Shown here piece after piece: positions 1-33,369 of a DNA stretch of 34,161 nt. Source of the DNA: an uncultured bacterium (GTDB lineage Bacteria; Abyssobacteria; SURF-5); NCBI GenBank assembly GCA_964607485.1, contig CAZSKP010000031.1, forward strand, positions 1-34,161. Direction: 5' to 3'. Position 1 is the stretch's first letter; the number at the start of each line of letters is the position of its first letter. The position numbers were made by a program, and so were the translations under genes. Below the pieces are notes generated by a model. It was not told where the DNA came from and did not search any database. It saw nothing but the letters and a program-made list of their open reading frames with translations.

Positions 1-1646
<1,646 letters not shown>

Positions 1647-1988
1647 CTATGACTATAGCGCTTCGGAGCCAATTGCTCTAGTCAACTTTAACGGACTCAT
1701 CGATTGATTTTGGTGACAATGGGAGACTTGAAGGGTCGTTAGAAGAACGTCGCACCATTTCTTGAGCGAAGAATTCGGGGCCGACGGTCATTACATTCTG
1801 ATTATCAGCGGCAGGGGCGCCAACAGCGGGGCGTCCAGAGGCCAGCTACCAGAGAATTCTAGCCTCAATGCATACACAGCCGGGCAGAGACTAGGCGGAT
1901 CTATTTGGAGCAGCGAAGAGTAATCTCAGAAGGGGTGGAATTGTTCACTTCTCGAGTTGAAGGATTCGGCTTTTTGCAGTCAAGAGCA

Positions 1989-2085
1989 AGTGCAGAATCG
2001 AAAACGGAATATGCACTCTCTGAGAGCGATATTTAGACAATCGGATGGGTGGAATGTGCACTCTTGAAGGGGCTGAAAAAGTGCA
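1989..2085 (+). repeat. Dispersed intergenic repeat, copy A
   Basis: Core GAGCGATATTTAGACAATCGGATGGGTGGAA (2024-2054) matches 9118-9148 at 30/31. AGAATCGAAAACG (1994-2006) is identical to 3814-3826. Confidence 0.85.
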
Positions 2086-2231
2086 ACTCTTGACAGGTAT
2101 TCTTAGATTCTATTGCGTCCGCGTATGTTTGGCTGGACGTCTTCAGATCACGCACGTTCCCGCATGGCCATCTGGGGATATGTCTCCCAGCGGGGGCTGA
2201 CCCGCTGGGTTTCCTGGCTTTCCTCGCATGG

Positions 2232-3482
2232 TCACCACTGAGCAGGTTTATGGATATTCAGCCGTTCGTTTACGCCACCGTCCTGGTGATTCTGCTCTAC
2301 CATGCCCCGTTCTCGTTGATCGAGAGGAAGCGCAACGGGCCGACCCGTTCGAGCCGATTCGTAGCTGGCAAATACCAACTCTATGTCAGCGCGACCGTGA
2401 CGCCCCTCGACACATGGTGTCTTACCCGTCCGTACACACTCGGCAAAATCCGTGATCGACGCTTCGTAAACGTTGAAATTACCGAATTCCCCAATGATAT
2501 CCACGGGCGTTCCGCAGGCAAGAGTTCGCTGTAACACATCATCCGGAACCTCCGCATCTAGAACCATTTTCATATACAGCTTTGCGTCCTCAAAGTAGTC
2601 TACGTCTGCGGGCGCCTGAAACTTCTTATTCTTTGCACTGTATACATTCAATCCGCCTATTTCAAGTGGCCCGTGGGCGGGCAAACGCATCCCCGGAATC
2701 TCGGCGATGCTGCCTTCTGTCCCGTACACCGCCATAAATGGAACCTTGGGTGCGGAACGAATATTACAGCTTTCGATCAGATTCGTGATGACACCGGTTT
2801 CATGAACGAATGTGACGACAGAAGTCTCGTCCACCTCCCACACCCCGGCGGGAGACCGGTTGAGCGCATAAACACTCCTGACGGGCCCACCTAGTTGGTT
2901 AACCATTGCCATCAGATGTACGCCCCGGTCGAAGAGGAATCCGCCGCCACCAGTCGATTCTCGCCTGCGCCAGTCAAATGCTTGCATATGTGTGCTCACT
3001 TCAACGGTGAAAAACATCTCTTGCACGAGGATGAGAAATGGTTCACCGATGTCTCCTCTATCGATTATTTCGATTGTTCGCCTGATGGCCGGTTCGAAGC
3101 GGAAATTCTCCGAGACAGCCAACACGAGGCCGGCGCTTCGAGCAGCGTCAATGATTGAATCGGCTTCGGCGAGCGAGTTTGCGATTGGTTTTTCGAGCAA
3201 TACGTGTTTTCCCGCTCCGAATGCTGACAGAGCCAACTCAGCGTGCAGATGGTGAGGAAGACAAAGGTCAACCGCATCGATGCGGGGATCGGAAAGGACC
3301 CGGTCGTAATCGCTGATAACACCTGCGGCTTCAAACTCATCCTCGAACGCGCGCGCTCGCGTTGCATCGGCATCGCACACATACAGCTCAATGGTATCCT
3401 GATGTTTCTGGCATGCCTGAGCATGAACCCTGCCGATCATGCCACACCCAACAAGACAGAGTCTCAGTTTTTCTTTGCCCAT
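2232..3482 (-). CDS. Gfo/Idh/MocA family NAD(P)-dependent oxidoreductase
   Basis: Rossmann GCGMIG, 'AGKHVLLEKPIA', 'GGGFLFDRGVH' and C-terminal 'YESARTGRPV' motifs; GGAGGG RBS upstream. Confidence 0.93.
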   Translation of the reverse strand: MGKEKLRLCLVGCGMIGRVHAQACQKHQDTIELYVCDADATRARAFEDEFEAAGVISDYDRVLSDPRIDAVDLCLPHHLHAELALSAFGAGKHVLLEKPIANSLAEADSIIDAARSAGLVLAVSENFRFEPAIRRTIEIIDRGDIGEPFLILVQEMFFTVEVSTHMQAFDWRRRESTGGGGFLFDRGVHLMAMVNQLGGPVRSVYALNRSPAGVWEVDETSVVTFVHETGVITNLIESCNIRSAPKVPFMAVYGTEGSIAEIPGMRLPAHGPLEIGGLNVYSAKNKKFQAPADVDYFEDAKLYMKMVLDAEVPDDVLQRTLACGTPVDIIGEFGNFNVYEASITDFAECVRTGKTPCVEGRHGRADIELVFASYESARTGRPVALPLDQRERGMVEQNHQDGGVNERLNIHKPAQW

Positions 3483-3654
3483 ATCATTCCCTCCGGTATG
3501 TCGAACCGTATCCTTTTTGTCTCGTCGAAAACGCTGCGCCAGTTAACGAACGCTATCACAACGGGAGCCTGAAATGCAACTAATAAGTGGCGACTTCCGC
3601 ACGGGAATGGCTGGAATCGAGCAGGTGAGGATTCTTGTAGAAGACCGCTGTTAT

Positions 3655-3677
3655 TCTTCACTCCGGTCGAGTGAAGA
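3655..3677. other. Perfect 9-bp inverted repeat (hairpin or operator)
   Basis: TCTTCACTC-cggtc-GAGTGAAGA upstream of the Gfo/Idh/MocA gene; function unknown. Confidence 0.4.
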
Positions 3678-3810
3678 TTTCGCCCAAATAACCCCCGCCG
3701 GTCGATTTCAAGAATTGCCTTGGGATGAGAGCGCCACAGGTCCCATATTAGCAGCAAGCGGTCATTTGGGGGTACAGGGGTCAAGGATGGAAAGGGGAAA
3801 GCCTATAGAA

Positions 3811-3903
3811 TATAGAATCGAAAACGAACTCTTGACTCTCTCAGAGGGAGATTAAGCGGTCGGATGAGCAACAGTCTCACTTCCTGAGAGCCAGGAAAGT
3901 CAC
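3811..3903 (+). repeat. Dispersed intergenic repeat, copy B (diverged)
   Basis: TATAGAATCGAAAACG...ACTCTCTCAGAG...TCGGATG...CACTTCCTGAGAGCCAGGAAAGT is colinear with copies A, C and D. Confidence 0.7.
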
Positions 3904-3950
3904 GGGTTTGAACAATTTCTCTGCGATTTCATCCTCATACTGTCAGCTTT

Positions 3951-5849
3951 TCAAGAGATTTCCTTGGCACGAGCAGTGTAAAAGGACTGCAGGACAAAAA
4001 AGGCAGGTTTGCGGTACGTCTTATCGGCCGAGAGCAATCCTTTCAAATTGTAGTAATCCTGGATGGGATTGGTTCTCCGGAGGGACCTGAAATCGTAGAG
4101 TATCCATGGGCTGATTCCACGAATCTGAGGGGTCTTCTTGATAGCCTCCAGTTGTTCCTCATAGACGGCGGCCTGCTTTTCCTCTGTGAAGAATTCATCG
4201 GATGGCCCGCGTCGTCCACTCCTCGCCCCGGCTCCCATTTCGGTGATAACGAATGGCTTTGGAATGTCGGTATTCTCGAAAAATTTCCTCAGGTTATCTA
4301 TCCCGGGATGATACCATCCGAAATACTCATTGATGCCGACTATGTCGAGATGTTCCGCCAGACGATCATCGATCTTCTTGCTTTCCCAGTTGACGAGACA
4401 GGCAGCCGAGACTGGGCGTGTCGAATCCAAATCGCGACAACAGCCCGCCAGCCTGCTCATGAAAGAGAGCCGGGCATCGCTGTCCTCATTCTCATTTCCC
4501 ACAGACCAGATAATGACGCTGGCCCGTCTCCAATCTCGCAGGATCAACTCCGTCATCTGGTTTTCCGCGTCCTTGAGCGTGTCCGGGTTGCCGAAATCAA
4601 TAGCCCAGTAGACCGGAATCTCTTCCCAGAGCATCATTCCCAGTTCGTCAGCCAGCTTTGCGGTCTCTCTGCTATGAGGATAATGAGCCAATCGAACGAA
4701 GTTGCAGCCCAGTTCTTTCGCAACGCCAAGGTTTTCCCGAATCTCATCGACACTCAGCGCCTTTCCGTTGGCAACGCTCTCTTCGTGGCAACTGATCCCT
4801 TTCAGGAAAATCTCTGTGCCATTTAACAGGATTTTCTCTCCCGCTATTCTGATCTCCCGGAATCCGACCCTGTCGGAGAGCTTGTCGCCATTGTATTCTA
4901 TGCTGACATCATAGAGTTTCGGTCTTTCCGGATTCCATAGGATCGCTTCAACGCTGAATCGTGTCTCGCCTTCTCCTCCAGTTACGGGGACGGAAATTCT
5001 CGTTCCAAGCTCCGGCATATTCAGGACGGCCTCACCATCGACGGGGTCGCTCAGAGAGACCTTGCAGGACATATTCCTAAATGTTCCGTCGGGCACGAGG
5101 AACACATTGTAGTTTTTTATGAACACAGTGGGTGTAAAGACCAATTCGATATCCCGATATATCCCTCCATAGTTGAACCAGTCAAAGTTATCCATCGGGA
5201 CATGCGTATCGCGACGGGTATTGTCATCAACCAGTATCAGTCGGTTCCCGGTTTCAAGGATGTCTTCAGTTAGCTCGACATAGAAATCGGTCGAGCCGCC
5301 GAGATGTGATCCCATGAGTTTTCCATTCAGAAAGATTACGCATCGGTAATTCGCCGCTCCGATTCGGAGGAAGACTCTCTCAACTTCAGATACATCGACT
5401 TCAAACATGCGTGTGAATACCATCGGCCCTTCATAAAGGAAAAGCCTCTCGCTTACCATGTTCCAGCAGGCGGGAAGTTCCAATGTAGGCCATTCATCAA
5501 AATCAAAGTCCATCGGGGTCATTGTCCTGGCGATTTTCACCAGGTCCAGTTCATGTATGACCTCGGGAGGGAAATCTTCCTCATTTATCCCCATTTGCGA
5601 AAACATGTGCCGAAAGCCCCAATAGACGCTTTCCGATGTGCTGAACTTATACCAGCGTGACCTCAAACACGTGTTGAACGGATCAATCGAATAATGCCAG
5701 AGACCGCTCAGGCTGGCTTTCTTCCGGCCTTCGTCTGCCATGAGAGTCTGGAAACGGATCGGCTTATTCAAGAACTCCTTCCAGTAATCCCTTAGATGGA
5801 TCGACTCCTGGACATTTCCCGGTCTTTTTTCTTCCTTGGCTGCCCCCAT
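3951..5849 (-). CDS. Glycoside hydrolase family 2, beta-glucuronidase-like
   Basis: 'DWFNYGGIYR', 'NFVRLAHYP', acid/base 'WSVGNE', 'NEYFGWY', nucleophile 'ITEMGA' and N-x-K motif 'NLKG'; RBS GGGAGGAG. Confidence 0.92.
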   Translation of the reverse strand: MGAAKEEKRPGNVQESIHLRDYWKEFLNKPIRFQTLMADEGRKKASLSGLWHYSIDPFNTCLRSRWYKFSTSESVYWGFRHMFSQMGINEEDFPPEVIHELDLVKIARTMTPMDFDFDEWPTLELPACWNMVSERLFLYEGPMVFTRMFEVDVSEVERVFLRIGAANYRCVIFLNGKLMGSHLGGSTDFYVELTEDILETGNRLILVDDNTRRDTHVPMDNFDWFNYGGIYRDIELVFTPTVFIKNYNVFLVPDGTFRNMSCKVSLSDPVDGEAVLNMPELGTRISVPVTGGEGETRFSVEAILWNPERPKLYDVSIEYNGDKLSDRVGFREIRIAGEKILLNGTEIFLKGISCHEESVANGKALSVDEIRENLGVAKELGCNFVRLAHYPHSRETAKLADELGMMLWEEIPVYWAIDFGNPDTLKDAENQMTELILRDWRRASVIIWSVGNENEDSDARLSFMSRLAGCCRDLDSTRPVSAACLVNWESKKIDDRLAEHLDIVGINEYFGWYHPGIDNLRKFFENTDIPKPFVITEMGAGARSGRRGPSDEFFTEEKQAAVYEEQLEAIKKTPQIRGISPWILYDFRSLRRTNPIQDYYNLKGLLSADKTYRKPAFFVLQSFYTARAKEIS

Positions 5850-6171
5850 CTTCTCCTCCCTTATTGCAGCAACTAAGCTCTCTCTTCCCTTGAGGAAGCA
5901 TGTACTATGTATGAACTGCCCCCACCAACGTTACGAGTCTTTATGTTAGTCCGCGGACTGTTATCAAATCAACCAGTTTCTCGCTGATGGGACGCTGGCG
6001 CGGAAGCGAGGCAACACTTCGGGTGGAAAAGACGGGCATTCTGCACTGCCGCATAGTGGAGCTTCCCAAGATGTTTTTCACTCCCTAGAAGTCGGAGAAT
6101 GAAGTATCATCATTGAGTCGGTGTTATTTGTCGAGTGACAGGGAGGGGCTGCTCGGTATCGAGCAAACAAA

Positions 6172-6267
6172 TGCAGAATGGAAGGCGTTATCTACACTCT
6201 CTCGGAGCGATACTTGAACGAGTTGACGGGAGATGCCTTCACTTTGAGAGATCGGGTAAAGTGAAGG
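6172..6267 (+). repeat. Dispersed intergenic repeat, copy C
   Basis: CGTTATCTACACT (6186-6198) is identical to 9099-9111. CTCTCGGAGCGATACTTGAACGA matches copy E at 21/23. Ends in a perfect 10-bp inverted repeat CCTTCACTTT-N12-AAAGTGAAGG (6236-6267). Confidence 0.8.
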
Positions 6268-6322
6268 GTACAATTCAAGAACGCAAGAGTGAATGATCCC
6301 TAAATGAGCCGACCAGCTTATG

Positions 6323-8815
6323 CTAACGATCCGTCTTAACTGGTATCAACAGCAGTTTGCCTTCCTGATTTGCCTCGATCTCCTCTGCGGTATTCCAGAT
6401 GGGGAGTGATTCGCCCCTGAGCCAGAATGGCAATTGGTCGGAGTAGTGGCTGCTGAAGCGGTTTCCGGATTGGCCGAGGGTGATGACCATGTGAGCCGCA
6501 TTCACATTTCCGAAGTCCACGACCGTCCTCATCGATGCCCCGGCAACGACGGGATACGGCTTGCGTTCCACGTCGAAGTAGTAGTTGGCCGGGTTGATAG
6601 TAGAGTTCGAGCCTCCCATCTGGAATGGCCCTACGTTCAGCGCCTTTGCCAAGATTCCTTGGCGCCCCAGGGGATGCGTGAAGGTAAGCGTGTGAAGTCG
6701 TCCCCATGTCCAGCCTTCGGGATCACATTGGTAGAACTGTCTCAGTGACTTCACGGCCCGGGCCACGCCGGCCGCGATTGCCTGGTCGCGTGTCTCCACG
6801 GCATCGGTCGAAGCGTCATCAAACCATTTCCGGGATGCGGCCTCTGTCAACAAGTCGTCGAGGCTCGGGATGGACCTGTAAACTCGCCTCCACAGCCCCC
6901 CTTCCATCCTGTCCCGAATGATGTTCCTGGCAATCGTCGCATAGCTCTCGAAGAAAATGGTGGCTCCAGCCCTGTCCGGCTCGGCCATCAGATCCCACGC
7001 CTTCATCAGCTCGACAGCCTGCCGGAAGTCCGAATCGGCGCTCGGATATTTCTCGCATGCGTCAACAAAGATGTCTCGCAATCGCTCCGCCTGCTTCGAG
7101 TACACATCCATCTGAATACGTTCCATATCCTCGGAGGAGAGTCTCTCACGCGCAAGGATAAGTTCCTCTATCCGTTCCGCTCGATACGGACCGAGGTACT
7201 GCGTGGAGATGAGATAGGGGTAGTCATCCGGCGTCACCCTGTTGTTCGCGGTAACGATATATCCATTCGAGGGATTGAACAGACGGGGCATCTCGTCATA
7301 GGGAATGTAACCATCCCAGTCGTATTCTTCAAGCCATCCGGGCACGGGAAGCATCCCGCGGCCCTTTTTTCTGATTGGTATCAGACCCACAAGCTGATAC
7401 CCGATGTTGCCCTCCGCATCCGCATACACCCAATTCCACACAGGTGTTACCGTGTATCTTAGGGCCTCACGAAAATCCTGCCAATTTCTCGCCCTGAGCA
7501 TCAGACGCGCTGATTTGAGCGAATCGGATGTCTCGTAGCCTGCCCAGCGAAGCGAGAGCGGCATGTCGGTCCGGACCGGCGGATCGGCGATCTCGTTAAT
7601 GATCGGACCGTGAACGCTCAACCGGATCTCCTTTTCGACCGATTTCATTTCGCCGCGTTCCCGGTACCGGATGACTTCCTTGACGCTCTCGAACGGCAGA
7701 TACGCACCGTCATGGTAGTATTCGTTGGGGTCCTCCGGATTCAGCTTTTCGATGAACAAGTCCTGCGTATCCGCGCCGGTAGTCGTGTCGCCCCATGCAA
7801 TATGGCGGGTGTGTCCCATCACAATCATCGGCACCCCAAGCGTCATGATGCCTGCGGCGTCGTCGATTCCCGGCGCCGACAGGTGAACCATGTACCATAT
7901 CGAAGGTAAGGTGTGCGGAATGTGAGGGTCGTTGGCCAGCATCGGTTTTCCCGAATGGCTGCGCGCACCGCTCACGACCCATGCGTTGCTCGCGAAAACC
8001 TGGCTGCGGTCGGCAATCGACGACACATGTGTTTCACCTTTCTGCGCCGGTGACGCTTCCTCTCGTTCAAATTTGATGCGATTGTAGTCGAACTCCGGCG
8101 GAATGATTGTGCCGTCTATGCGCGACTGCTCGACGCCGTACTGCTTCTCCGTCTCCGATATAATGCTGGGCCCTTGCTCTCTCTGAGTGCCGATGAGTTC
8201 CAGCGTTTCATCGACTCCGAGGCCTTGCATCAAACCCACCATTGCAAGCTCGGATTCCCAGTTGAATGTTACCATCCACTGCTGCCACATGAGCACGCCG
8301 TACACATTCTCAGGCGACCACAACTCAGGTCTGTACCCCAGCAGGAGGAATTCGAGCGGAACCCGGTCGGGGAATTCCCTTATGTAGTCGTTGATGCCGC
8401 CCACGTAGGCGCGGCACATCTTCCTGGACTCTTCGTCGGCATCGCCGTAGAGCCTCTCCGCCAGTCGCTGAAAGCCGAGAACACGGTGCTTGTAATCGAG
8501 AGGAATCAGGTCAGGCCCGAATATCTCGGCCAGCCGCCCCTGCGAAAGGCGGCGGAAAAGGTCCATTTGCCAGAGTCTGTCCTGTGCGTTCACAAACCCG
8601 AGAGCGTAGTAAAGGTCATTCTCGGATCGGGCTCTTATATGGGGAATTCCGTAAATGTCTCGGATTACTTCGACGCGGTTCAGGAGCCCGGGCAGGGCGA
8701 TCTCGCCGCTGATCTGTGGAAGGCTTTTTCGGATCAGATGCGTGCTCCACAGACCGACGACCGCGACAGCGAGCAAGAGTGTGACGGCGAGTACGAGGAT
8801 GATTCTCTTTGTCAT
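6323..8815 (-). CDS. Penicillin acylase / acyl-homoserine-lactone acylase family Ntn hydrolase, N-terminally anchored or exported
   Basis: 'RDIYGIPHI', 'AQDRLWQMD', beta-subunit start 'SNAWVVSG', 'LANDPH', 'YADAEGNIGY' and 'GQSG...HYSDQ'. Start moved from 8983 to the ATG at 8815 (MTKRIILVLAVTLLL; RBS GGGAAGGGG). Confidence 0.93.
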   Translation of the reverse strand: MTKRIILVLAVTLLLAVAVVGLWSTHLIRKSLPQISGEIALPGLLNRVEVIRDIYGIPHIRARSENDLYYALGFVNAQDRLWQMDLFRRLSQGRLAEIFGPDLIPLDYKHRVLGFQRLAERLYGDADEESRKMCRAYVGGINDYIREFPDRVPLEFLLLGYRPELWSPENVYGVLMWQQWMVTFNWESELAMVGLMQGLGVDETLELIGTQREQGPSIISETEKQYGVEQSRIDGTIIPPEFDYNRIKFEREEASPAQKGETHVSSIADRSQVFASNAWVVSGARSHSGKPMLANDPHIPHTLPSIWYMVHLSAPGIDDAAGIMTLGVPMIVMGHTRHIAWGDTTTGADTQDLFIEKLNPEDPNEYYHDGAYLPFESVKEVIRYRERGEMKSVEKEIRLSVHGPIINEIADPPVRTDMPLSLRWAGYETSDSLKSARLMLRARNWQDFREALRYTVTPVWNWVYADAEGNIGYQLVGLIPIRKKGRGMLPVPGWLEEYDWDGYIPYDEMPRLFNPSNGYIVTANNRVTPDDYPYLISTQYLGPYRAERIEELILARERLSSEDMERIQMDVYSKQAERLRDIFVDACEKYPSADSDFRQAVELMKAWDLMAEPDRAGATIFFESYATIARNIIRDRMEGGLWRRVYRSIPSLDDLLTEAASRKWFDDASTDAVETRDQAIAAGVARAVKSLRQFYQCDPEGWTWGRLHTLTFTHPLGRQGILAKALNVGPFQMGGSNSTINPANYYFDVERKPYPVVAGASMRTVVDFGNVNAAHMVITLGQSGNRFSSHYSDQLPFWLRGESLPIWNTAEEIEANQEGKLLLIPVKTDR

Positions 8816-9083
8816 CTGCCCCTTCCCAATCCTCTCTTTCCGCATGGGCCCGACTTCAGCAATGACCAACTTACCTGGGCACATTCCGGCTCGCGGAAAT
8901 CCGTTCGATATGCAGATTGCGCTTCCAACTCTCGGCGAAGTATATAACATTGGACATCCTATTGCCAAACCGCGCGCAACCATGTGTGCTGGTTCGGATG
9001 CGGGAGATTCCGTGAGAGTGGATTGTGGGGGGTCGATTCACGAGAGTCCAAACTCATCATCAATGGAGGCATGATCTGGGGAT

Positions 9084-9176
9084 GTGCAGCCTGGAAAACG
9101 TTATCTACACTAGCTGGGAGCGATATTTAGACGATCGGATGGGTGGAAGGTCGACTTTTTGAGGTTTCGGAAAAGC
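9084..9176 (+). repeat. Dispersed intergenic repeat, copy D
   Basis: GTGCAG...CGTTATCTACAC...GAGCGATATTTAGACGATCGGATGGGTGGAA...ACTTTTT-N10-AAAAG; core matches copy A at 30/31 and copy E at 28/31. Confidence 0.85.
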
Positions 9177-9403
9177 AAAGTCGTGCCGATCGTGTTCTCG
9201 GTAATCCATTTTGTCAGGAACAAGAGCGCCCCTGTCGAGAACAGAAAGAAAGCGGTGACGAGCGGCAGGCTAAACCAGTTCTTCCCTTTTTGATTAGAGC
9301 GTCTTCATCGGAATATTGCTCTGCCGCGGTCGGAGCTTCGCCATTTCGGAAAAAGCGCTGAGCATTAAGGGAATCTCGACCGATTGAAGCATCTATTCCA
9401 TCG

Positions 9404-10501
9404 TTAATCCAGCTTGAACTCGATTCCTCGGGCTGCGGCGCGTTGCCTCCCCCATTCGATTTCGTCCGCAGGCGGTTCCAGCCGCTCGGCCTCGGGCTTT
9501 CGAACCAGCGTTATCGCCTCCACGGGACAGGTGGGCGCGCATGCGCCACAGCCGATGCAGCGCTCTTCGAGCACCCGGTACTCTCCGGCATCCTCAACAA
9601 TGGCATCCATGGGACACCGCTCATCCTTGCACACACCGCATGCCGTGCAGCTTTCCTGGTCTATCGCCGCCCGGAAATTGCTTCGTGCGATCGCAGTGGG
9701 AATATTGAACTCCTTCACGGCGCGAAGCATCCCACAACAGCATGGACAGCAGGCACACACAAAATCCTGCCCTTCGCCGTAGTTGTAGGTGAGGTGAACA
9801 AGACCTGCTTCCTCAGCCCTGTCAATGGCCTCGAAGGCTTCCTTCTTGGATATGATCTTTCCAAGCTGCGGATATCTCTCGTAGGCGTTTTCCTCGTTGG
9901 AGAAGTTCAGGCATACGTCGAGCGGATACTTGCATCGATTGCCAAGAAGCCCCTGCTCCGTCCGGCACATGCAGTCTTGGAGCATGAACGACTTGGCCTC
10001 GTCCACCATCCTTCGTATGTCCTCGTAACGATGCACATGAAGGTCCTCTTTGACCTGTGTGCTCACGGGGACGACACGCGTAACGGCCGGGTCGATACCT
10101 ACAAGAGTCATGCCGAGATACGGCGCGTATTCCTCGAACAGCTCCATGAATTCTCTGCGCTCGGCCGGTGTCTTATCCTTTCGGAGAAACTGGAACTCAT
10201 AGATGCCGATGGCAAACGGATACAACTTGTACATCTGCTTGCCGTTCCTTTTCAGGGGACCGATCTGCCCCTTAAGGACCATGTCGTCCAGGATCGCCTG
10301 CATTTCATCCAAGGGTTTTCCGACGCGCTCGGCGATCTGCTCAACAGTCTCCGCCACGGGTCTGAGATTGAGCGCCATCTCGGCTTCTTCCGGCGCAAAG
10401 ACGCGCTGGAGAATCTTGAGTTCGACGCCGTCCTCGGTCTCCGGATAGCCGTTCGGCAGTTCGTCGAGTTTCCTGGCCAGCCGCTTATAGACGTCGGTCA
10501 T
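9404..10501 (-). CDS. Multi-cluster Fe-S protein with C-terminal 2x[4Fe-4S] ferredoxin domain
   Basis: Cys motifs CMCR, C..C, CACCPCCC, CTACGVC....CP and CIGCGACAPTCP; RBS AAGGAGG. Confidence 0.88.
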   Translation of the reverse strand: MTDVYKRLARKLDELPNGYPETEDGVELKILQRVFAPEEAEMALNLRPVAETVEQIAERVGKPLDEMQAILDDMVLKGQIGPLKRNGKQMYKLYPFAIGIYEFQFLRKDKTPAERREFMELFEEYAPYLGMTLVGIDPAVTRVVPVSTQVKEDLHVHRYEDIRRMVDEAKSFMLQDCMCRTEQGLLGNRCKYPLDVCLNFSNEENAYERYPQLGKIISKKEAFEAIDRAEEAGLVHLTYNYGEGQDFVCACCPCCCGMLRAVKEFNIPTAIARSNFRAAIDQESCTACGVCKDERCPMDAIVEDAGEYRVLEERCIGCGACAPTCPVEAITLVRKPEAERLEPPADEIEWGRQRAAARGIEFKLD

Positions 10502-10524
10502 CGGGAAATCCTCCTTTCGTGTTT

Positions 10525-11607
10525 TTACTTCTTGTAGTATTCGGTCGCCTCGGGATTAAGCCAGCACTTAGGGTCGGAGGCCATAACGTCGCCGGTGTAG
10601 TAGAGCGCGCTCGCCCGGCAGCCGAAGCAGAGATCGTTGTTGGGGCAATCGCCACACATGCCTTTGGGCGTGAAGTTGAAGAACAGCTTATCGCGATGCT
10701 TCTCGACGACGGTTCTCAGACCGCGCTCGAATACGCTTTCGGTGTCCAGATAGTCGCGCATCGCCAGGCACGGATGTGCGCGACCACCGACATCGACGCA
10801 GAAGGTCGTCCTGCAATAGTAGAGTGAGGCTTCGCTGGCGCCGAGACGGAGCCAGTGGTCTCCCATTTTGCTTGCCCGATATTTGATCGCTCGCGCCACG
10901 TCGGACGTCGAGGGTTCCAGGTCAGCCGTTTCCTTGCCGAAGCCCTCTCCCTTAAATACCATCAGGCAAACGAACGTGGTCCCCATTTCATCGTAGAACC
11001 AGTCGAGCGTCTCTTCGATGCGTCGGAGCGAGGGCGCCGTCATTGTGATCAGTCCAAAGGTCTTGTATGCCGGGTATCCGCTGTCGAGCAGCCTCTTGAA
11101 GCCGTCCATGCGAGCCTGCCGCGTGCGAGGGTTCTCGTGAAGTTCGGCATAGGTTTCGGGATGCACGCTGTCGAGATGGACTCCGAGAAACAGGTTTTCC
11201 TGATATTCGTTGAAGAGCTCGATGTGTTTCTTCGAGAACAGGCCGCTTGTGGGCATCTGCATCGAGATTCCGAGATTTGTGGCGAGCTCGAACAGCTCAC
11301 GGATGTGAGGATAGAGCTGTGGGTCGCCGCCCATCCATGTGACGGCCTTTACTCCGAGTTCCTGCGCCTCCCTCAGCATTTGCGTCACACTCTCCAATGG
11401 CATCCTTTCGGTCCGTCCCGACGTGGATGACGCACAGCAGAACCGGCAGGAAGCCGCACACTTCGTCGTCAGCTCGATTTCCATCTGAACCGGTCCGAGC
11501 TTTTCAACCTGCTCGGCGCGCGATGTGTCGCACAATATCTGAAAGACCGGGTCATCGGGCAGCTCGGTCAGCCGCGGCGGAAATTCACAGGCTGAAGCGT
11601 GACTCAT
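10525..11607 (-). CDS. Radical SAM protein with SPASM domain (NirJ/Ahb/PqqE-like architecture)
   Basis: CAASCRFC (CxxxCxxC), 'GGDP', and SPASM Cys array YC...HPC...CGDC.....C..C...DPKCW; TAATG overlap with tetR. Confidence 0.92.
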   Translation of the reverse strand: MSHASACEFPPRLTELPDDPVFQILCDTSRAEQVEKLGPVQMEIELTTKCAASCRFCCASSTSGRTERMPLESVTQMLREAQELGVKAVTWMGGDPQLYPHIRELFELATNLGISMQMPTSGLFSKKHIELFNEYQENLFLGVHLDSVHPETYAELHENPRTRQARMDGFKRLLDSGYPAYKTFGLITMTAPSLRRIEETLDWFYDEMGTTFVCLMVFKGEGFGKETADLEPSTSDVARAIKYRASKMGDHWLRLGASEASLYYCRTTFCVDVGGRAHPCLAMRDYLDTESVFERGLRTVVEKHRDKLFFNFTPKGMCGDCPNNDLCFGCRASALYYTGDVMASDPKCWLNPEATEYYKK

Positions 11608-12269
11608 TATTTGTTCTCCCTCTTTCCTTTTTGGACTTCCTTTTGCTTTGTCCCAATGCTGTCAAGGAAAAAGCGCGTTGCCTGCTCGAGGTTCGCCGAA
11701 AGCGGTGGCTCCAGTCTCTCCGTCTTGTTCAGCATAAAGAGACCGATGATCTGCGCAAAGAAGATATCGCCCATCATGACCGGATCCCATGGCTGAAACT
11801 CACCTTTCTTCACGCCCTCCCGAAACAGACGATGAAAGATCGCATCAAGCTCCTTAGTCTTCCGCTCGAGGCGCTCTGCAAGGTCGCTGTCGAGATATGG
11901 GCTGACTTCGTATCGGGTGATGAAATACAGGTGAAACAGCGCCTGTCGGTTTCGAAAGAAGGTCAGGAGAACATCCTTCAGCCCCTCGATCCTGTCCGCG
12001 GCGCTGCGATCCTCCGAGGCCGCCTTGCGCGCCTCCGATATCAGCGAATCCATCGCGCGGCCGAGTATGGCAACGTATATCGCCTCCTTGCTCGGAAAGT
12101 AGTTGTAGAGCGAGGCCCTGCTAAACTCGGCCGCCTCGCCGATGTCGTTCATCGTGGTGCCGGTAAACCCTTTCTTGAAAAAGAGTTCTTCCGCGGCATC
12201 GAGGATGAGCTCGACTCGCGCCCGTCTCTCTCTCGCTCGTCTCGAGCATTTCGTAGCAGTCGTCATCAT
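11607..12269 (-). CDS. TetR/AcrR family transcriptional regulator
   Basis: HTH 'ILDAAEELFFKKGFTGTTMNDIGEAAEFSRASLYNYFPSKEAI'; start uncertain (12287, 12269 or 12266). Confidence 0.93.
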   Translation of the reverse strand: MMTTATKCSRRARERRARVELILDAAEELFFKKGFTGTTMNDIGEAAEFSRASLYNYFPSKEAIYVAILGRAMDSLISEARKAASEDRSAADRIEGLKDVLLTFFRNRQALFHLYFITRYEVSPYLDSDLAERLERKTKELDAIFHRLFREGVKKGEFQPWDPVMMGDIFFAQIIGLFMLNKTERLEPPLSANLEQATRFFLDSIGTKQKEVQKGKRENK

Positions 12270-14184: not shown

Positions 14185-14865
14185 TTGAAAATCCTTATTG
14201 CGCCATCAATTCTTTCAGCCGATTTTTCCAGACTCGCTGAGGAGGTCGACGCCGTTCAGCGGGCGGGCGCCGACATGCTGCACCTCGATGTAATGGATGG
14301 GCACTTTGTCCCGAACATAACCTTCGGGCCGGCTGTTGTGAGCGCCATAAAGTCCGTCGCTTCAGTGCCGCTTGCCGTTCACCTTATGATTGAAAAGCCG
14401 GAGAATTATGTCAAAGAGTTCGTCGACGCCGGAGCCGGTATCTTAACGTTCCATCTAGAGGCTTACCGTTATCCACACAGACTTGCGCAAGTGATAAGGG
14501 ACCATGGTGTAAAGGCCGGAGTTGCCCTCAACCCCTCCACCCCTGTTGACGAACTCGAATACGTGGTCGAGCATCTCGATATGGTCCTTGTGATGAGTGT
14601 CGATCCCGGGTTTGGGGGGCAGGAGTTTATACCCGGGATGCTGAAAAAGATCTCTCAAACGAGGAAACTGGCGGGGGATGACATGGACATTTTCGTCGAC
14701 GGCGGAGTAAATCGGCACAATGCAGGCGATATTGTGTGCGCAGGAGGAAACGTGCTCGTGGCGGGGTCTTCCGTATTTCGGTCAGCCGACTACAAAGAGG
14801 CCATAGCAGCTCTCCGGACCGAGAACGTATTTTGTAGCGACCGGAAAGGAGGACGATTGGCATGA
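14185..14865 (+). CDS. rpe: Ribulose-phosphate 3-epimerase
   Basis: 'IAPSILSADF', 'HLDVMDGHFVPN', 'MSVDPGFGGQ', 'VDGGVN', 'VAGSSVF'; TTG start. Confidence 0.97.
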   Translation: MKILIAPSILSADFSRLAEEVDAVQRAGADMLHLDVMDGHFVPNITFGPAVVSAIKSVASVPLAVHLMIEKPENYVKEFVDAGAGILTFHLEAYRYPHRLAQVIRDHGVKAGVALNPSTPVDELEYVVEHLDMVLVMSVDPGFGGQEFIPGMLKKISQTRKLAGDDMDIFVDGGVNRHNAGDIVCAGGNVLVAGSSVFRSADYKEAIAALRTENVFCSDRKGGRLA

Positions 14866-17672
14866 ACAGGATCGGCAAACTCAACAAGCTGGGGCAGGCC
14901 ATCTGGTACGACAATATCCGCAGGTCTCTCCTAGACTCCGGTGAGCTTCAGGCGCTCATAGATGAGGGCGTGACCGGTGTAACGTCCAACCCGACGATAT
15001 TTCAGAAGGCGATAGCCGGCAGCGGGGACTATGATGAAGACCTGCAACGTCTCAGCGGCGAGGGCAAGGCTCCGGAGGAAATCTTCTGGAGTCTCGCAGC
15101 CGATGATATGCGGCGCACGGCCGACCTGCTGCGTCCGGTCTACGACCGCACCGAGGGCGCAGACGGGTACGCCTGTCTCGAGGTCAATCCCGCCCTCGCC
15201 CATGAGACCGAAGAGACGGTCAGCGAGGCGAGGCGCCTGTTCGCTCTTCTGGACCGCCCCAACGTCATGATCAAAGTGCCCGCCACGCCCGCCGGCATAC
15301 CGGCCATAGAAAAACTGATCTCGGAGGGAATCAACGTCAACGTCACGTTGATGTTTTCCCTCGAGCAGTACGAGGCGGTCGCCAACGCCTACATAGCCGG
15401 ACTGGAAAAGCTGGCAGCGTCCGGAGGAGACGTGGGCCGGGTCGCGTCGGTGGCCTCGTTCTTCGTGAGCCGCGTCGATACCGCCGTGGATAAGATACTC
15501 GAGGCGGTCGGAGAGACAGACCTCCAGGGCAAGGCGGCCATCGCCAACGCCAAGATGGCCTATGCCCGCTTCAAGGAGATCTTCGGCGGACCCCGGTGGA
15601 AAGCGCTGGCAGCGAGAGGGGCCCGCGTGCAGCGCCCGCTGTGGGCGAGCACGGGCACGAAGAACCCGATGTATTCCGACACCCTTTACGTCGACAGCCT
15701 CGTAGGACGGGACACCGTTAATACCCTCCCGCCTGCCACATTGCAGGCTTTCATCGACCACGGCGCCGCTGCTCCCACGATTGAGGCCGACCTGGATGTG
15801 GCCCGCAAATTCGTGGAGCGCCTGCCCGAGGCGGGTGTCGACCTAGACGCGGTGACGAAAAAGCTGCTGGACGAAGGCGTCGCCGCATTCGCCGGCTCCT
15901 TCGATTCTCTGATTGATTCGATCACGGAGAAGCGCGAGAGATTGCAGACCGGGCGGCGGCAATTCTCGGCCACACTGGATTCATATCAGACGCTGGTCGA
16001 CAGGGCGATGGCGGAGGTCAGGGACAAGCGCATCCTGAGCCGCATCTGGGCGCACGACCACACCGTATGGAAGCCTGAGCCGAAGGAGATCTCGAACCGG
16101 CTGGGATGGCTGAACATGCCGGAAATCATGAAAGAGTGCGCCTACCGGATGCATGCCCTGACCGAGGCCGTTCGCAACGACGACTATACCCACGCAGTGC
16201 TGCTTGGGATGGGTGGCTCTAGTCTGGCGCCGGAGGTCTTCCGCAAGACATTCGGCGTCAAGAATGGGTACGTGGACCTCGCCGTGCTCGACAGCACCGA
16301 CCCCGGCGCCGTCTTGGCTCATGCCGAACGGCTCCACCCGGCGAGGACGCTGCTCATCGTTTCCACCAAGTCCGGCGGCACCGTGGAGACTCTTTCATTC
16401 TTCAAGTTCTTCTACAACTGGGTGGCCGAAGCTCTCGGAGCCGACCAAGCCGGCAGGCATTTCATCGCCGTCACCGACCCCGGCAGCGCCCTCGCCGACC
16501 TGGCCGGGCAATACAAGTTTCGGGCAACGTTCCTCAACGACCCGACTATCGGCGGACGCTATTCGGCCCTCTCCTACTTCGGGCTCGTGCCGGCGGCGCT
16601 CGTCGGCGTGGACATCGAGACGTTGCTCGACCGTGCCATGACCATGGCCTGTAACTGCGAGGGCTGTAACTGTCCCGTGGACGGCGACAACGCCGGCGGC
16701 CGCCTGGGCGTCATCATGGCCGAACTGGCCAAAGCGGGCCGCGACAAAATTACGCTGATCACCTCGCCGGCCCTCGCCAGCTTCGGCGATTGGGTTGAGC
16801 AGCTCATCGCGGAGAGCACGGGCAAGGATGGCAAAGGAATCGTTCCCGTAGTGGGTGAGCCGGTCGGAACTCCCGAGGTTTATGGCCCCGACCGCCTTTT
16901 CGTATACCTTCGGCTGAAAGGCGATGAAGCTCATGATTCGGCCGTGAGAACACTGGAAGAAGCCGGCCACCCCGTCGTCCGGCTTCATCTCGAAGACCTC
17001 TACGATCTTGGGGGACAGTTTTTCCTCTGGGAAATGGCCACCGCCGTGGCGGGCGCGCGCATCGGCATCAATCCGTTTGACCAGCCCAACGTCGAAGCGG
17101 CCAAGAAGCTGGCCCGCAAGATGGTCGACTCGTACAAAAAGGAAGGAGAGCTCCCCGAGCTATCCCCTGCATTCCAATCGGACGGAATGCGCGTGTATGC
17201 CGATTTCGGGGCGAACAGCGTGGGCGAGGCGCTTCAACGATTTCTCTCCCTGGCCCAGCCGGGGGACGATGACGGCGCGGGACGGAGCTATGTCGCCCTT
17301 CAAGCATACATCGAGCCGACGCCGGAAACCGACGAAGCCCTACGGAATCTGCGCGTGAGAATCCGAGATCGATACCGGTTGGCGGTCACGACCGGGTATG
17401 GGCCGCGTTTTCTCCATTCGACCGGACAACTTCACAAGGGAGATGCCGGACGTGGGCTGTTCATACAGTTCGCTGCCGATATGCCCAATGATGCGCCCAT
17501 CCCCGACCGTGCGAATGAGAACACCTCATCAATAAGCTTCGGCGTTCTGAAAGATGCCCAGGCGCTCGGCGATCGCCAGGCATTGCTCGACGCGGGCCGG
17601 AAAGTGATTCGCTTTCACTTGGGCAAAGACGTCGTCGGGTCTCTAAGACGACTGACAGAGGCACTGGGATGA
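14862..17672 (+). CDS. tal: Bifunctional transaldolase / phosphoglucose isomerase fusion
   Basis: Tal domain 'GVTSNPTIF', 'NVMIKVPAT', 'SFFVSRVD', 'LWASTGTKNP'; Pgi/SIS domain 'GMGGSSL', 'SKSG-like STKSGGTVET', 'GGRYSALS', 'QLIAESTGK', 'NPFDQPNVE', 'STGQLHKG'; ATGA overlap with rpe. Confidence 0.96.
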   Translation: MNRIGKLNKLGQAIWYDNIRRSLLDSGELQALIDEGVTGVTSNPTIFQKAIAGSGDYDEDLQRLSGEGKAPEEIFWSLAADDMRRTADLLRPVYDRTEGADGYACLEVNPALAHETEETVSEARRLFALLDRPNVMIKVPATPAGIPAIEKLISEGINVNVTLMFSLEQYEAVANAYIAGLEKLAASGGDVGRVASVASFFVSRVDTAVDKILEAVGETDLQGKAAIANAKMAYARFKEIFGGPRWKALAARGARVQRPLWASTGTKNPMYSDTLYVDSLVGRDTVNTLPPATLQAFIDHGAAAPTIEADLDVARKFVERLPEAGVDLDAVTKKLLDEGVAAFAGSFDSLIDSITEKRERLQTGRRQFSATLDSYQTLVDRAMAEVRDKRILSRIWAHDHTVWKPEPKEISNRLGWLNMPEIMKECAYRMHALTEAVRNDDYTHAVLLGMGGSSLAPEVFRKTFGVKNGYVDLAVLDSTDPGAVLAHAERLHPARTLLIVSTKSGGTVETLSFFKFFYNWVAEALGADQAGRHFIAVTDPGSALADLAGQYKFRATFLNDPTIGGRYSALSYFGLVPAALVGVDIETLLDRAMTMACNCEGCNCPVDGDNAGGRLGVIMAELAKAGRDKITLITSPALASFGDWVEQLIAESTGKDGKGIVPVVGEPVGTPEVYGPDRLFVYLRLKGDEAHDSAVRTLEEAGHPVVRLHLEDLYDLGGQFFLWEMATAVAGARIGINPFDQPNVEAAKKLARKMVDSYKKEGELPELSPAFQSDGMRVYADFGANSVGEALQRFLSLAQPGDDDGAGRSYVALQAYIEPTPETDEALRNLRVRIRDRYRLAVTTGYGPRFLHSTGQLHKGDAGRGLFIQFAADMPNDAPIPDRANENTSSISFGVLKDAQALGDRQALLDAGRKVIRFHLGKDVVGSLRRLTEALG

Positions 17673-27047: not shown

Positions 27048-30000
27048 TTACTGCTTCTGTGGAAGCAAAGCTCTAAGAGTGGGGACGAGGATCAGTGTGG
27101 CAACGGTTGATGAAATCAATCCTCCAATCACCGTTATCGCGAATGGCTGAAATATCCGCGAACCGACCGCCGGGTTCACAGCCACGGGGATCAGGGCGAA
27201 GATCGTAGTTGCAGCGGTCATCAGGATCGGTCGAAAACGGATTGATGCGGCAGTGAGCAATGCTTCGTGCAGTGCCTGGCCCGCAGACAGTTGGCGATTT
27301 GCATAGTCCAGCAGCACTATCGCATTGTTGACAGCTATACCTATGAGGGTGAGCGCGCCCATCGCAACGGAAACATCCAGGCCCACACGGGTGATTGCCA
27401 GCAGCACGATCGCTCCGACGAGAGCGAAGGGCACGGTCACCAGAATGATCGCTGGCTGGAGACAAGAACGGAACTGCACGGCCATGACCAGGTAGATCAG
27501 CATGATGGCTGCCAGTCCAACCAGAACAAAGTCCAAGACCGTCCGTTTCATCACTTGGTACTGGCCGGTGAAAGCGATGCTGTATCCAGTGGGCAGAGAG
27601 ACGGTCGAAAACTCATGGCGCAGTCTCTTCACGGCCGCAGCAATGCTCCCGTTCACCTCTGCTAGAACCGTGACTTCACGTTGACCATTGAGTCGAGTGA
27701 CGGCCGCGGGCATATGAGTAACATGAATGCCGGCGACCCGCCCCAGAGGAACCGTCTGGCCCGATGGAGTTGAAATGGAAAGTCCCTCCAACCACTCGAG
27801 CGTTGTGTCCGAAGGCGACTCAGTCTTGACCCAGACTTGCACTTGCTTCTGCTGCCTGATGATTGTCGTCGCCTGGACACCGAATCGAGCTGCCTGGATC
27901 GCTGCAAAGACATCGCTGGGGGAAATCCCGCAACGGGCCAGCTCGAGCGGATTGGGCCGGACGATGATCTGCGGGCTGTTGATCTTCGTGTTGTTGATGA
28001 TATTGGCCAAGGCAGGGTCGTCAGCCATGATCTTCTCAACCTGTGCCGCCAGCGACACCAGCTCCGCCATATCAGGGCCGAAGATCGTCACCCCGAACAT
28101 CGCCGGCAGGCCCGAAAGGCTTTCGTCCATCTTCTCCTGCGTAGGTTGGTGATACAGAAACGCCACACCGGGAATCTGCTTGTATCGTTCGCGCAGCCCA
28201 TCCATGATTTGGGCCAGCGTTCGCTTGCGGGCTGAACGAGGGGCAAGCTTGATTGTCAGCTCTCCGCGATTGACGCCTTCGATCTGGAATCCCTTTTCCG
28301 GCGAACCGGTTCGACGATACACGGTTTCAACATCGTCTTGGGCGAGGGCTTCGCGCTCGAGGATGTCGCCGATACGGCCGCTCTCGGCCAGCGACGTGCC
28401 CGGCGGCATGACGTACTCAATAAGAATGGCTCCCTCATCAATGGGCGGCAACACGCTGACCGGTCCCAGCCAGGCGGCAAGCCCGCCCAGGCACAGCGTC
28501 AGGCCCACTATCAGGAGGGTTAGGCCTCGGTGATTTAACGCGAAGCGAAGAACCCGCTGGAGACGACGGTCGAGCGACGTGAGCAACGCTGCGCCGATTG
28601 CGCGTCGTTCGCCAAGCGAGCCTACAGCGCCAAACATCGCAGGCACGAAGCTCAGAGAGATTATCAGTGATGCCAGCAGCGCAGCGCTGACGACCAGCCC
28701 GAAAGGCCGCACGAAGAGTCCGGCAATGCCTCCGAGAAGAACAAGTGGCGCGAAGGCTGCGATTGTCGTGAAAGTCCCCGAGACATCCGGACCGGCAATC
28801 TCGGCGGCACCCTCCAGACTGGCCGCCCCGCGCTCCCGGCCGGATTGAAGATGCCGGACAATGCTTTCGGCCACGACAATGGCGTCATCGACCACCATCC
28901 CTACCGCCAGCGTCAGCGCTGAAAGCGTGATGACGTTAAGCGTCTGGTCGAAGACCTGCATTAGTGCGAGTGCCGCGAGTAGCGTGATGGGGATTGCCGC
29001 GGCGACGATCAACGTTGCTCGAATCGTCCCCATAAAAAGGAAGAGCACAACCGCTACTAGAATTGCGCCGAGGATTAAGTCATGAAAGAGCGAGTCCCGC
29101 GCCTCGGTAATGATGTCAGCCTGGTCGTAGAACTTCCGAACCTGTGCGCCCGGCGGCAGGAGCGTCCCGAGCTCCGCCAGCTCCCGATCGACGCCATGGA
29201 CGACGGCGATCGTGCTGGCTGTGGGTTGTTTGCTCACGATGAATGCAACGGCCGGCTGGCCGTTGCCGTGGACCTCGTAATGTCGCGGCATCCGGCCGGA
29301 CCGGACTGAGGCAATGTCCCGCAGCAACACGGATCGCATGCTGTCGCCAACGACTGGCACCGTCTCGATATCTTCGATTGTCTGGAGCCTGCTGTCGCCT
29401 CGAATGAGATATTCCCTCGACCCACGCTCGATAAAGTCCGCTGCGACAGCCACGTTTTGCCCGGAGAGGGCGGACGTCACGTCGCCGATGGTCAAATGTT
29501 CCCGCGCCAGCGCGTCCGGATGGAGGGTTATGATAAAGGCCGGCTCCTCGCCACCCAGGACCTCTACGCGCGACACTCCTTCGACGCCCATCAACCGGCT
29601 GGCCACGTCGGTCTGCACGGTTGAGCGGAGTTCTATCGGGTCGCCTCCCCCATAGGCCACATAGCCGCTCACCTCCTGAAGGGTGGTGCCGATGTTTTCC
29701 AGGCGGGGAGTGACGCCGGCCGGCAGGTCGGGTTGTACGGATGAGAGCTCTGCTTGAACGAGCTGGCGCGCATCGGTCAGGCGGGTTCCCCATTCAAACT
29801 CGGCGGTGATCTGCGAGATGCCTTCGATACAGTCTGAGGAAACACGACGAATGCCGGGTATCGTGCGGATGCGATCCTCGATAGGGCGAGTGATGAACAA
29901 CTCCATGTCCTGAGCGGCTGCACCGGGATAGTGGCAGATGACATTCACCACCGGCACATCCAGACCGGGAAAAAGCCCCACGGGCAGGTGAAGCAGCGCG

Positions 30001-30083: not shown

Positions 30084-30086
30084 GGG

Positions 30087-32614: not shown

Positions 32615-32860
32615 GGATTTCCATCGCGTGAGTGGACGCATCTGCCGCCACGGAGCTCCGATACCCAGAGGGCTGCCCAATTGCGCCTCCAGCACTTGCC
32701 CGTCAATATTAGAAACTCCTACTCTTCTCCAACAGAGTATACATCATTGCCCTCCTGCATATCAAAACGCCCTTGGCCTGTGAATCATTGGCTGACGTCA
32801 ATCAGAAACGACTCAGTGAGGAATGTTACTTGTTCGATTTCTCACGAATGCGCGTTACCA

Positions 32861-32908
32861 GAAAGTGAAGCTTCCACCCATCCGGTCGTTCAAATATCGC
32901 TCTGAGAG
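32861..32908 (-). repeat. Dispersed intergenic repeat, copy E (inverted, partial)
   Basis: Reverse complement CTCTCAGAGCGATATTTGAACGACCGGATGGGTGGAAGCTTCACTTTC; core 32872-32902 matches copy D at 28/31. Confidence 0.85.
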
Positions 32909-33369
32909 AACCCTAACATCACAAGAGCTGCCAAAGCGGCGCCAGGCGGATATGAAACATGCTAGCGAGGTATGACAGGGGATACGAATTGGTCGATTAC
33001 CATCGTCAATGCAGCGCGCACTTCGGGAGATAACCTCTCTCACGCTTGCATAAGCAGGATTTTGTGAGCATATATGGTGCAATGGCCTCGATTAAGGTGC
33101 AGATTCTGGTCGGCAGTCTGCAGTTGACGGAAGTGTTGAATGGTCCATTATTGCTCAGACTTTTGCTTCTCTGGGTGGGATTTCGGGAAATAATCTCCAG
33201 ATTAAGAGCATGAGTCCAGAAATTATTATCTCTTTGCAAGGCCGTTTCAAGGCCAATCTTAAGTAAAGATAAATGTAATATACGCAAAAGTCCTTTTCAT
33301 CTCCCGATTTTCACGGTTGCGCAGAGGGACCCAGTTCAAGCCCTCCTAAGAGTCAGTCCAGGAATTTAC

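Follow-up and report, generated by a model that had tools for sequence, protein, structure and literature searches.

Only two ways of filing single genes into arrays are well understood in bacteria: integrons and, less so, modules bounded by Xer sites. Integron attC sites, such as the Vibrio cholerae repeats, are co-oriented repeats of about 120 nt at the boundaries of mostly single-gene arrays. They usually lie just past a stop codon, contain inverted sequence units and end in RYYYAAC and GTTRRRY motifs, and their arrays can lack a neighbouring integrase, as in clusters of attC sites lacking integron integrases (CALIN). The pdif modules of Acinetobacter plasmids are gene-sized and bounded by 28-bp XerC-spacer-XerD sites in alternating orientation (a dif site consists of an 11-nt XerC arm, a 6-nt spacer and an 11-nt XerD arm), which are used by a housekeeping-type recombinase encoded elsewhere. 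Two kinds of dispersed repeat are also close in form: the bacterial interspersed mosaic elements BIME-1/RIP and the REPINs of Enterobacteria and Pseudomonas, and the enterobacterial repetitive intergenic consensus (ERIC, or IRU) of Enterobacteriaceae. In this work, we analyzed a 34,161-nt stretch of DNA (the window; contig CAZSKP010000031.1 of assembly GCA_964607485.1) from an uncultured bacterium of the Abyssobacteria, in which a repeat of about 125 nt stands between unrelated genes. On the reading that we tentatively favour, this element would work like attC or pdif sites, yet it fails the defining features of both.

The likeness to attC and CALIN lies in the size and co-orientation of the copies, in their position at the boundaries of mostly single-gene arrays, usually just past a stop codon, and in their inverted sequence units; neighbouring integrases can be missing in both cases. 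Unlike attC, the element does not have RYYYAAC or GTTRRRY ends, as the first-pass annotation of the window had stated: its conserved inverted motifs have purines where the attC consensus has pyrimidines, and vice versa. Nor is it an imperfect palindrome overall; it gives no whole-element consensus hairpin and its units do not covary. Long upstream spacers, large genes for ordinary enzymes and many solitary copies further separate it from attC cassettes. Gene-sized modules bounded by candidate recombination sites recall pdif, but the element measures at least 125 nt and is co-oriented. By eye, only 7 nt of its 3' extension resemble a XerD arm and the position of a XerC arm does not fit, in agreement with the earlier statement that dif or pdif arms are missing. 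With BIME-1/RIP and REPINs it shares an extragenic location, often just downstream of genes, and two inverted units (palindromic in those repeats, which are thought to be protein-bound) around a conserved linker. It differs from them in its unrelated sequence, in having no RAYT-type gene flanked by copies, in numbering about 48 copies instead of hundreds, and in its strictly co-oriented arrays framing single genes. Finally, it is similar to ERIC in size, in conservation across genera, in very different copy numbers, in unconserved positions and in having no known transposase. However, ERIC is one long imperfect palindrome described as transcribed, whereas the element lacks a consensus fold, belongs to another lineage and forms clustered co-oriented arrays.

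The element is a real, undescribed, non-coding DNA repeat restricted to one family. A profile was trained on four window copies and iterated over the assembly (4.70 Mb, 93 contigs, 57.4% GC; hereafter G000, with the window as positions 1 to 34161 of its contig C31), giving a 77-nt core with 41 matches at E<1e-4. Adding flanks showed that conservation extends 3', and the resulting 125-position profile gave 47 matches at E<1e-3, a repeat family far beyond chance. A sequence-only covariance model built from 43 copies found 48. The first-pass annotation had suggested scanning the genome and its relatives with a model of this kind; all ten genomes of the family carry the element, with 48, 23, 18, 15, 8, 6, 6, 3, 3 and 1 copies, while the same model detected no copy in the one genome of the phylum set that lies outside the family. 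Plain BLAST found no copies in 31 genomes outside the family. Searching one genome per species with a degenerate pattern of the core gave 25 matches, 20 of them in seven records of metagenome-assembled genomes, titled Candidatus Abyssobacteria, Candidatus Poribacteria and, in five cases, "uncultured bacterium". The other five were single matches in unrelated taxa, about the number expected by chance for a 37-bit pattern by our own arithmetic. Viral contigs gave no matches to the core pattern, and Rfam, also named as a check by the annotation, has no family matching at E<=1 over the whole window on either strand. A term search of the main text of the paper describing the lineage (PMC6121073) returned no mention of repeats, integrons, transposition or mobile elements, and our full-text literature searches found nothing on such an element in the text they reached.

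In the body of each copy, about 125 nt, two inverted units of about 35 nt each enclose a core of some 30 nt that hardly varies. The units are homologous: the ~35 nt on the left show 64% mean column identity when aligned with the reverse-complemented ~38 nt on the right. Read on the strand of the first four window copies (A to D), the 5' part is a short hairpin-like unit, with a 9-nt arm, a loop containing GAAAACG and a complementary arm ending in CTTCAC or TGCAC. The core follows; it is the most conserved part and contains GGATGGG. On its 3' side stand a longer hairpin, with the arm motif again in its arms, and a conserved tail. Many copies, in several genera, have in addition a box similar to the arm motif about 58 nt upstream and a conserved stretch of about 60–80 nt downstream, so that full units with these extras reach about 260 nt. 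The conserved blocks are present in every copy across genera. Two coding explanations were rejected: on the complement, many copies have a frame that stays open across the core, but it has no conserved start and is stopped in several of them, and the short open reading frames (ORFs; 5–21 aa) past the 3' extension are not conserved.

A structured RNA was rejected as well. RNAalifold, run on 27 and on 43 copies and on both strands, returned no consensus structure, and the helices from a column-pair scan consisted only of invariant columns and G-T pairs. In a covariation test, each copy's own arms were compared with arms swapped between copies. The first hairpin showed a small pairing excess (p 0.005–0.05), a weak result, since kinship among copies inflates such arm-swap tests. 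For the long hairpin the excess was not convincing (p 0.31 on the model strand, 0.026 on the complement and 0.10 with DNA parameters), and the inverted units did not covary (own versus cross duplex energy, -11.7 versus -12.2; p 0.85). As for single-strand folding, three of the four full window copies folded no better than shuffled sequences (z -0.3, -0.5 and -0.6), and copy C gave a z of -2.3. A scan for sigma-70 promoters and intrinsic terminators placed none inside copies, save a terminator-like hairpin at 9184–9203 that overlaps the last 3 nt of copy D. Conserved inverted units without compensatory change, together with an unstructured invariant core, are most simply read as protein recognition of DNA; judging from the sequence, the inverted units and the core look like sites recognised on DNA by a protein.

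The copies are intergenic and gather by stop codons. Although ORFs of at least 150 aa cover 84% of this genome, 44 of the 47 copies lie outside them. Placement was surveyed in 113 copies, 47 from this genome and 66 from 46 loci of eight other genera, with genes called by a longest-ORF heuristic that Pfam backs for many genes, not all. The host gaps are tandem, convergent and divergent. In 74 of 107 scorable copies the 3' side faces a stop codon, the median distance being 30 nt in this genome and 78 nt in the other genera; some tails run into the end of the ORF. Where a side faces a start codon, the distance is about 200–270 nt and is not fixed. The 193 proteins encoded beside the copies cover many kinds of enzymes, transporters and regulators, and only three homology clusters have at least three members.

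Clustering, common orientation and single-gene spacing characterise the arrays. A neighbouring copy within 5 kb was found for 31 of the 47 copies, whereas 2000 random trials averaged 4.2 such copies and never exceeded 18; this genome holds about 48 clustered copies, not hundreds scattered at random, the outcome named in the first-pass annotation as speaking against a cassette-like layout. Among adjacent pairs less than 8 kb apart, 41 of 43 were co-oriented (21 of 23 in this genome and 20 of 20 in other genera). The gene-relative bias of the element, about 69%, predicts only about 57% co-orientation (own arithmetic). Exactly one gene of at least 100 aa is enclosed by 23 of the 43 pairs, and in the 22 single-gene pairs that are co-oriented the gene is on the strand of the element nine times and on the opposite strand thirteen times. 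In a contig of another genus (G006:C3), six co-oriented copies occupy six successive gaps between genes that alternate in strand. Co-oriented direct copies call for a process that creates direct repeats, and recombination of a circular module at a resident site would be the textbook one.

In this genome, arrays occupy window positions 1-12000, G000:C4:49-120 kb and G000:C7:107-149 kb, and several places beside the arrays were recorded. At G000:C7:136436-137624, two copies diverge across a single ORF of 133 aa (136537-136938, no Pfam family) and the arrays on either side run oppositely; a place like this might harbour a control region. An all-against-all comparison of 2.5-kb flanks, made for a larger parent element, showed only paralogous genes and one unrelated 204-nt repeat, and such a parent was rejected. 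The 204-nt repeat is direct, with 93% identity between G000:C4:77735-77938 and G000:C4:109415-109618, and its second copy takes in the first 147 nt of a Mg-chelatase/ComM-like gene (PF01078) together with the region upstream. Seven copies of the element lie in the intervening 31.5 kb, where no integrase was seen. The pair may be a scar left when an island inserted into the 5' end of this gene.

Breaks in gene order coincide with the element. Orthologues of the amidase-family protein of the window, 62–78% identical, exist in all nine other genomes. At eight of their loci (L026-L033, from eight other genera), none has a copy within 1.5 kb, and the window's neighbours are absent beside the orthologue, except for a weak 4Fe-4S match in one. 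We also took consecutive gene pairs of foreign loci whose members both have homologues in this genome. Pairs split by the element were adjacent here in 0 of 5 cases, versus 12 of 25 for pairs without it (5 of 9 with gaps of at least 150 nt and 7 of 16 with shorter gaps). In eight loci, picked because a homologue adjoined the element, the block in common with this genome stopped at the element every time. Thus the conserved synteny across the repeats that the first-pass annotation had held up as the contrary outcome was not observed; gene order is not kept.

Some units of gene plus element recur among genera. In two genera, the 83% DNA homology of an AMP-binding gene continues about 74 nt into the element; likewise in two genera, co-oriented copies stand on both sides of a 376-aa gene. 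The stop codon of each of two GT2 paralogues is faced by the 3' side of a copy. A 149-aa protein with no Pfam family is 85–93% identical in three genera, always with a same-strand copy upstream (G000:C4:78102-78851; L011:14093-14838, genome G006; L073:3366-3936, genome G005); about 245 nt upstream of the gene are conserved too, and G000 and G006 share 85% identity over 751 nt. Homologues of element-adjacent genes were themselves element-adjacent in this genome in 6 of 30 cases, against a background of 2.1% and against 3 of 31 for nearby genes that do not adjoin the element. The best relative of the window's GH2 gene in metagenome contigs had 55% identity.

Co-oriented single-gene arrays at block edges, independent of gene strand, are what a module insertion site would produce. 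We tentatively favour the reading that gene-sized modules are joined at the element, which would be a lineage-specific recombination or insertion site acting at the DNA level. A trans-acting recombinase or transposase-like protein would recognise the inverted units and the core, and modules, usually one gene with its own upstream spacer, would enter or leave at existing copies. Each insertion would leave direct, co-oriented copies flanking the module irrespective of the strand of the gene inside, and repeated insertion would build arrays at the edges of conserved gene blocks. Also in its favour are the clustering of the copies, the recurring units of gene plus element, and the low GC content of the two modules between copies A and C. 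The copies are not grouped by genome, consistent with a shared pool: of 74 copies, the two most alike (84% identity) come from different genera, identity is 0.608 within and 0.603 between genomes, and the nearest neighbour of a copy is in the same genome for 18 of the 74, where 16.6 are expected. Nor do they group much by proximity, pairs less than 15 kb apart having an identity of 0.629, versus 0.606.

A number of results count against a joint of this kind. No pair exceeds 84% identity, that is, there is no sign of recent movement. Of the 47 copies, 16 have no neighbour within 5 kb. No integrase, resolvase or transposase family was found with Pfam among 174 ORFs in and around the arrays. Unlike in integrons, IntI is missing from this genome, where the best TIGR02249 match reaches 86.6 bits for a cut-off of 265, and the only genuine integron integrase of the family (418.8 bits; G003:C114:746-1666, locus L083) is on a contig without a copy of the element. 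The adjacency contrast comes from few pairs and has a Fisher p of about 0.06 by our own arithmetic; selection on element adjacency bears on the eight block ends, and in three of those loci the common block is only one or two genes and ends on the element-free side too. The copies flanking the 376-aa gene are not detectably more alike between genera than other copies. For the 149-aa unit, the distance between the element and the end of homology is 43 nt in one genome and 294 nt in another, and no fixed crossover point was found in either unit. Finally, the upstream spacers of the modules, about 200 nt, are unlike those of compact cassettes. The first-pass annotation had listed a recombination or insertion site among three options; co-orientation, one-gene spacing, lost adjacency and block ends speak for that option, and the missing recombinase and crossover point do not. 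A stronger version seems doubtful to us, namely an integrase-independent cassette system with compound sites of about 125–260 nt, in which single genes with their own promoter region would be captured, excised and exchanged among genera in either orientation by a putative recombinase encoded elsewhere in the genome. Candidates in this genome are tyrosine recombinases (G000:C18:16691-17482, C22:14654-15478, C56:10905-11717 and C82:149-1631) and Y1 proteins (C2:11200, C6:82382, C38:33194 and C7:78511).

The main rival is that the element is a repeat of the BIME, ERIC or REPIN kind, a selfish or domesticated non-autonomous element that spreads itself now or did so once. It would be tolerated mainly just after stop codons and in flexible regions, might bind a nucleoid or topology protein, and would not have moved the genes between its copies. 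This is possible, if somewhat unlikely. Such a repeat would be dispersed and intergenic, modular, with two inverted units around a linker, close to stop codons and mostly at unconserved positions, as are the copies described above, including their absence from the eight amidase loci; its copy number could well vary among genera from 1 to 48, as observed. Besides, 10 of 11 genomes contain Y1 (IS200/RAYT-type) transposase genes, PF01797 having five matches in this one. Yet within about 3.5 kb of these five genes, or at six Y1/IntI loci of relatives, no match to the element was better than E 1.8, and no transposase flanked by copies was seen among the scanned neighbours. A transposition burst is not visible either, given the 84% ceiling and the lack of genome-specific groups despite those copy numbers. 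The inverted units are internal, with conserved sequence running beyond them on both sides, and the ends show no variable direct repeat that would indicate target duplication (no empty site was compared). As for the annotation's option of a miniature inverted-repeat transposable element or a repetitive extragenic palindrome, the inverted units are present, but near-identical copies, a target duplication and a linked transposase were not seen; the option stands as a serious rival. We know of no REP, BIME or ERIC element with local co-orientation independent of gene strand, and here that co-orientation (41 of 43) is not explained by strand skew (16 of 46, see below).

Co-orientation of this kind is what a polar chromosome-architecture motif would give, if oriented by replication direction so that neighbouring copies share a replication arm; in agreement with it, the C-rich strand carries somewhat more of the copies (30 of 46). 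Still, only 16 of 46 copies have positive GC skew on the strand of the element, the agreement is limited to 30 of 46 copies that are not mutually independent, and four contigs show five reversals of orientation, two of them within ~30 kb of contig C7. With skew and reversals both against it, replication polarity fails to explain the co-orientation and was rejected. The copies are also clustered on few stretches instead of being spread along the chromosome, and known polar motifs are far smaller than 125–260 nt, so we hold this reading to be very improbable. Improbable too, to a lesser degree, is a transcribed regulatory unit acting on neighbouring genes or binding an RNA-binding protein, be it the gene of a small RNA, an element in the 3' UTR of the gene upstream, or a promoter with its leader that is portable. 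The blocks conserved in every copy and the first hairpin's weak covariation would suit it, as would hairpins slightly more stable on the model strand than on the complement (mean -7.8 versus -6.1 kcal/mol in 44 copies), a 6-bp stem in the 3' extension predicted only on that strand (14 of 78 copies, selected), a tail with -35/-10-like spacing and a purine-rich run seen by eye, and the co-directional copy upstream of the 149-aa gene in three genera. Nevertheless, the Rfam, RNAalifold, shuffling and promoter results do not fit it, nor does the lack of covariation in the long hairpin and the inverted units. Orientation is independent of the neighbouring gene in tandem, convergent and divergent gaps alike, distances to start codons vary, and neighbour genes with almost no recurrent families give no evident regulon. 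The annotation's third option, a conserved non-coding RNA or regulatory element, is disfavoured on these grounds.

If the module-joint reading is confirmed, the element would represent a second, independent solution to gene capture. The contrast with integrons would be marked: a larger site, in a deep-branching uncultured lineage, used without an integron integrase, for ordinary catabolic enzymes encoded in either orientation. The core and the inverted units provide a concrete sequence with which to seek the responsible protein. Even if the element turns out to be BIME- or ERIC-like, it is a clean marker of flexible regions in these genomes, and annotators currently leave blank about 50 conserved non-coding elements per genome.

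The coordinates of the window copies and of the modules between them are given in Table 1.

Table 1. Copies of the repeat in the window and the gene modules that they enclose
Feature	Position	Strand	Description
Copy A	1988..2113	+	nhmmer 1989-2106, E 2e-28; covariance-model match 1988-2109
Copy B	3809..3928	+	Between GFO/IDH/MocA and GH2 genes; nhmmer 3811-3928, E 6e-20; covariance model 3809-3928
Copy C	6169..6277	+	Between GH2 and penicillin-amidase-family genes; nhmmer 6170-6276, E 1.5e-19; covariance model 6169-6277
Copy D	9082..9186	+	Between amidase-family and 4Fe-4S/radical-SAM/TetR genes; nhmmer 9084-9186, E 5.5e-23; covariance model 9082-9186
Copy E	32827..32909	-	Partial, model positions ~30-111; nhmmer 32828-32909, E 5e-15; covariance model 32827-32909
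Module 1 (copies A-B)	2232..3482	-	GFO/IDH/MocA oxidoreductase; Pfam PF01408, PF02894; stop codon faces the 3' side of copy A
Module 2 (copies B-C)	3951..5849	-	GH2 glycoside hydrolase; Pfam PF02836, PF02837; stop codon ~20 nt from the 3' end of copy B
Module 3 (copies C-D)	6323..8983	-	Penicillin-amidase-family protein; Pfam PF01804

A repeat search of the window alone recovered a four-copy direct family (1994-2036, 3814-3856, 6175-6217 and 9088-9130; 72–79% identity to copy A), and inverted matches of copies A and D at 32859-32909 that are 83–84% complementary. Together with the five profile matches (E from 5e-15 to 2e-28), these are the five copies placed by the first-pass annotation, although its length of ~95 bp is too short, since the profile and the covariance model give ~120–125 nt. 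Its counts for the 31-nt core (30/31 and 28/31) were reproduced, with one difference between A and D and three between D and E. Copies A and D have 76% identity across a 92-nt alignment, and the five-way alignment has 64% mean column identity over the common body. In copy A, the left inverted unit occupies ~1990-2022, the invariant core 2024-2051, and the hairpin with the right inverted unit ~2052-2113; by reading the sequence, we also located the upstream box at 1934-1948 and a decayed 3' extension to ~2136. Copy E, which is without the left inverted unit, lies upstream of an outer-membrane/HlyD/AcrB efflux operon (Pfam; 27048-32695), in the same direction. A weak extra copy was detected by the covariance model on the same contig past the window (G000:C31:47526-47621, E 1.5e-5).

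The genes around the copies are also as the annotation had named them, Pfam giving catalase-peroxidase, GFO/IDH/MocA, GH2, penicillin-amidase family, 4Fe-4S/radical SAM and TetR, and no recombinase was found among the 22 window ORFs scanned with Pfam. GC content is 52% in 2001-4000 and 50% in 4001-6000, the part with modules 1 and 2 between copies A and C, as against 55–61% in most of the window and 57.4% for the genome. The pentose-phosphate cluster is free of copies, as had been reported, with zero profile matches between 9186 and 32828. Within this cluster, a single ORF of 936 aa (14862-17672, + strand) fuses a transaldolase domain (residues 14-353) to a phosphoglucose-isomerase domain (428-599).

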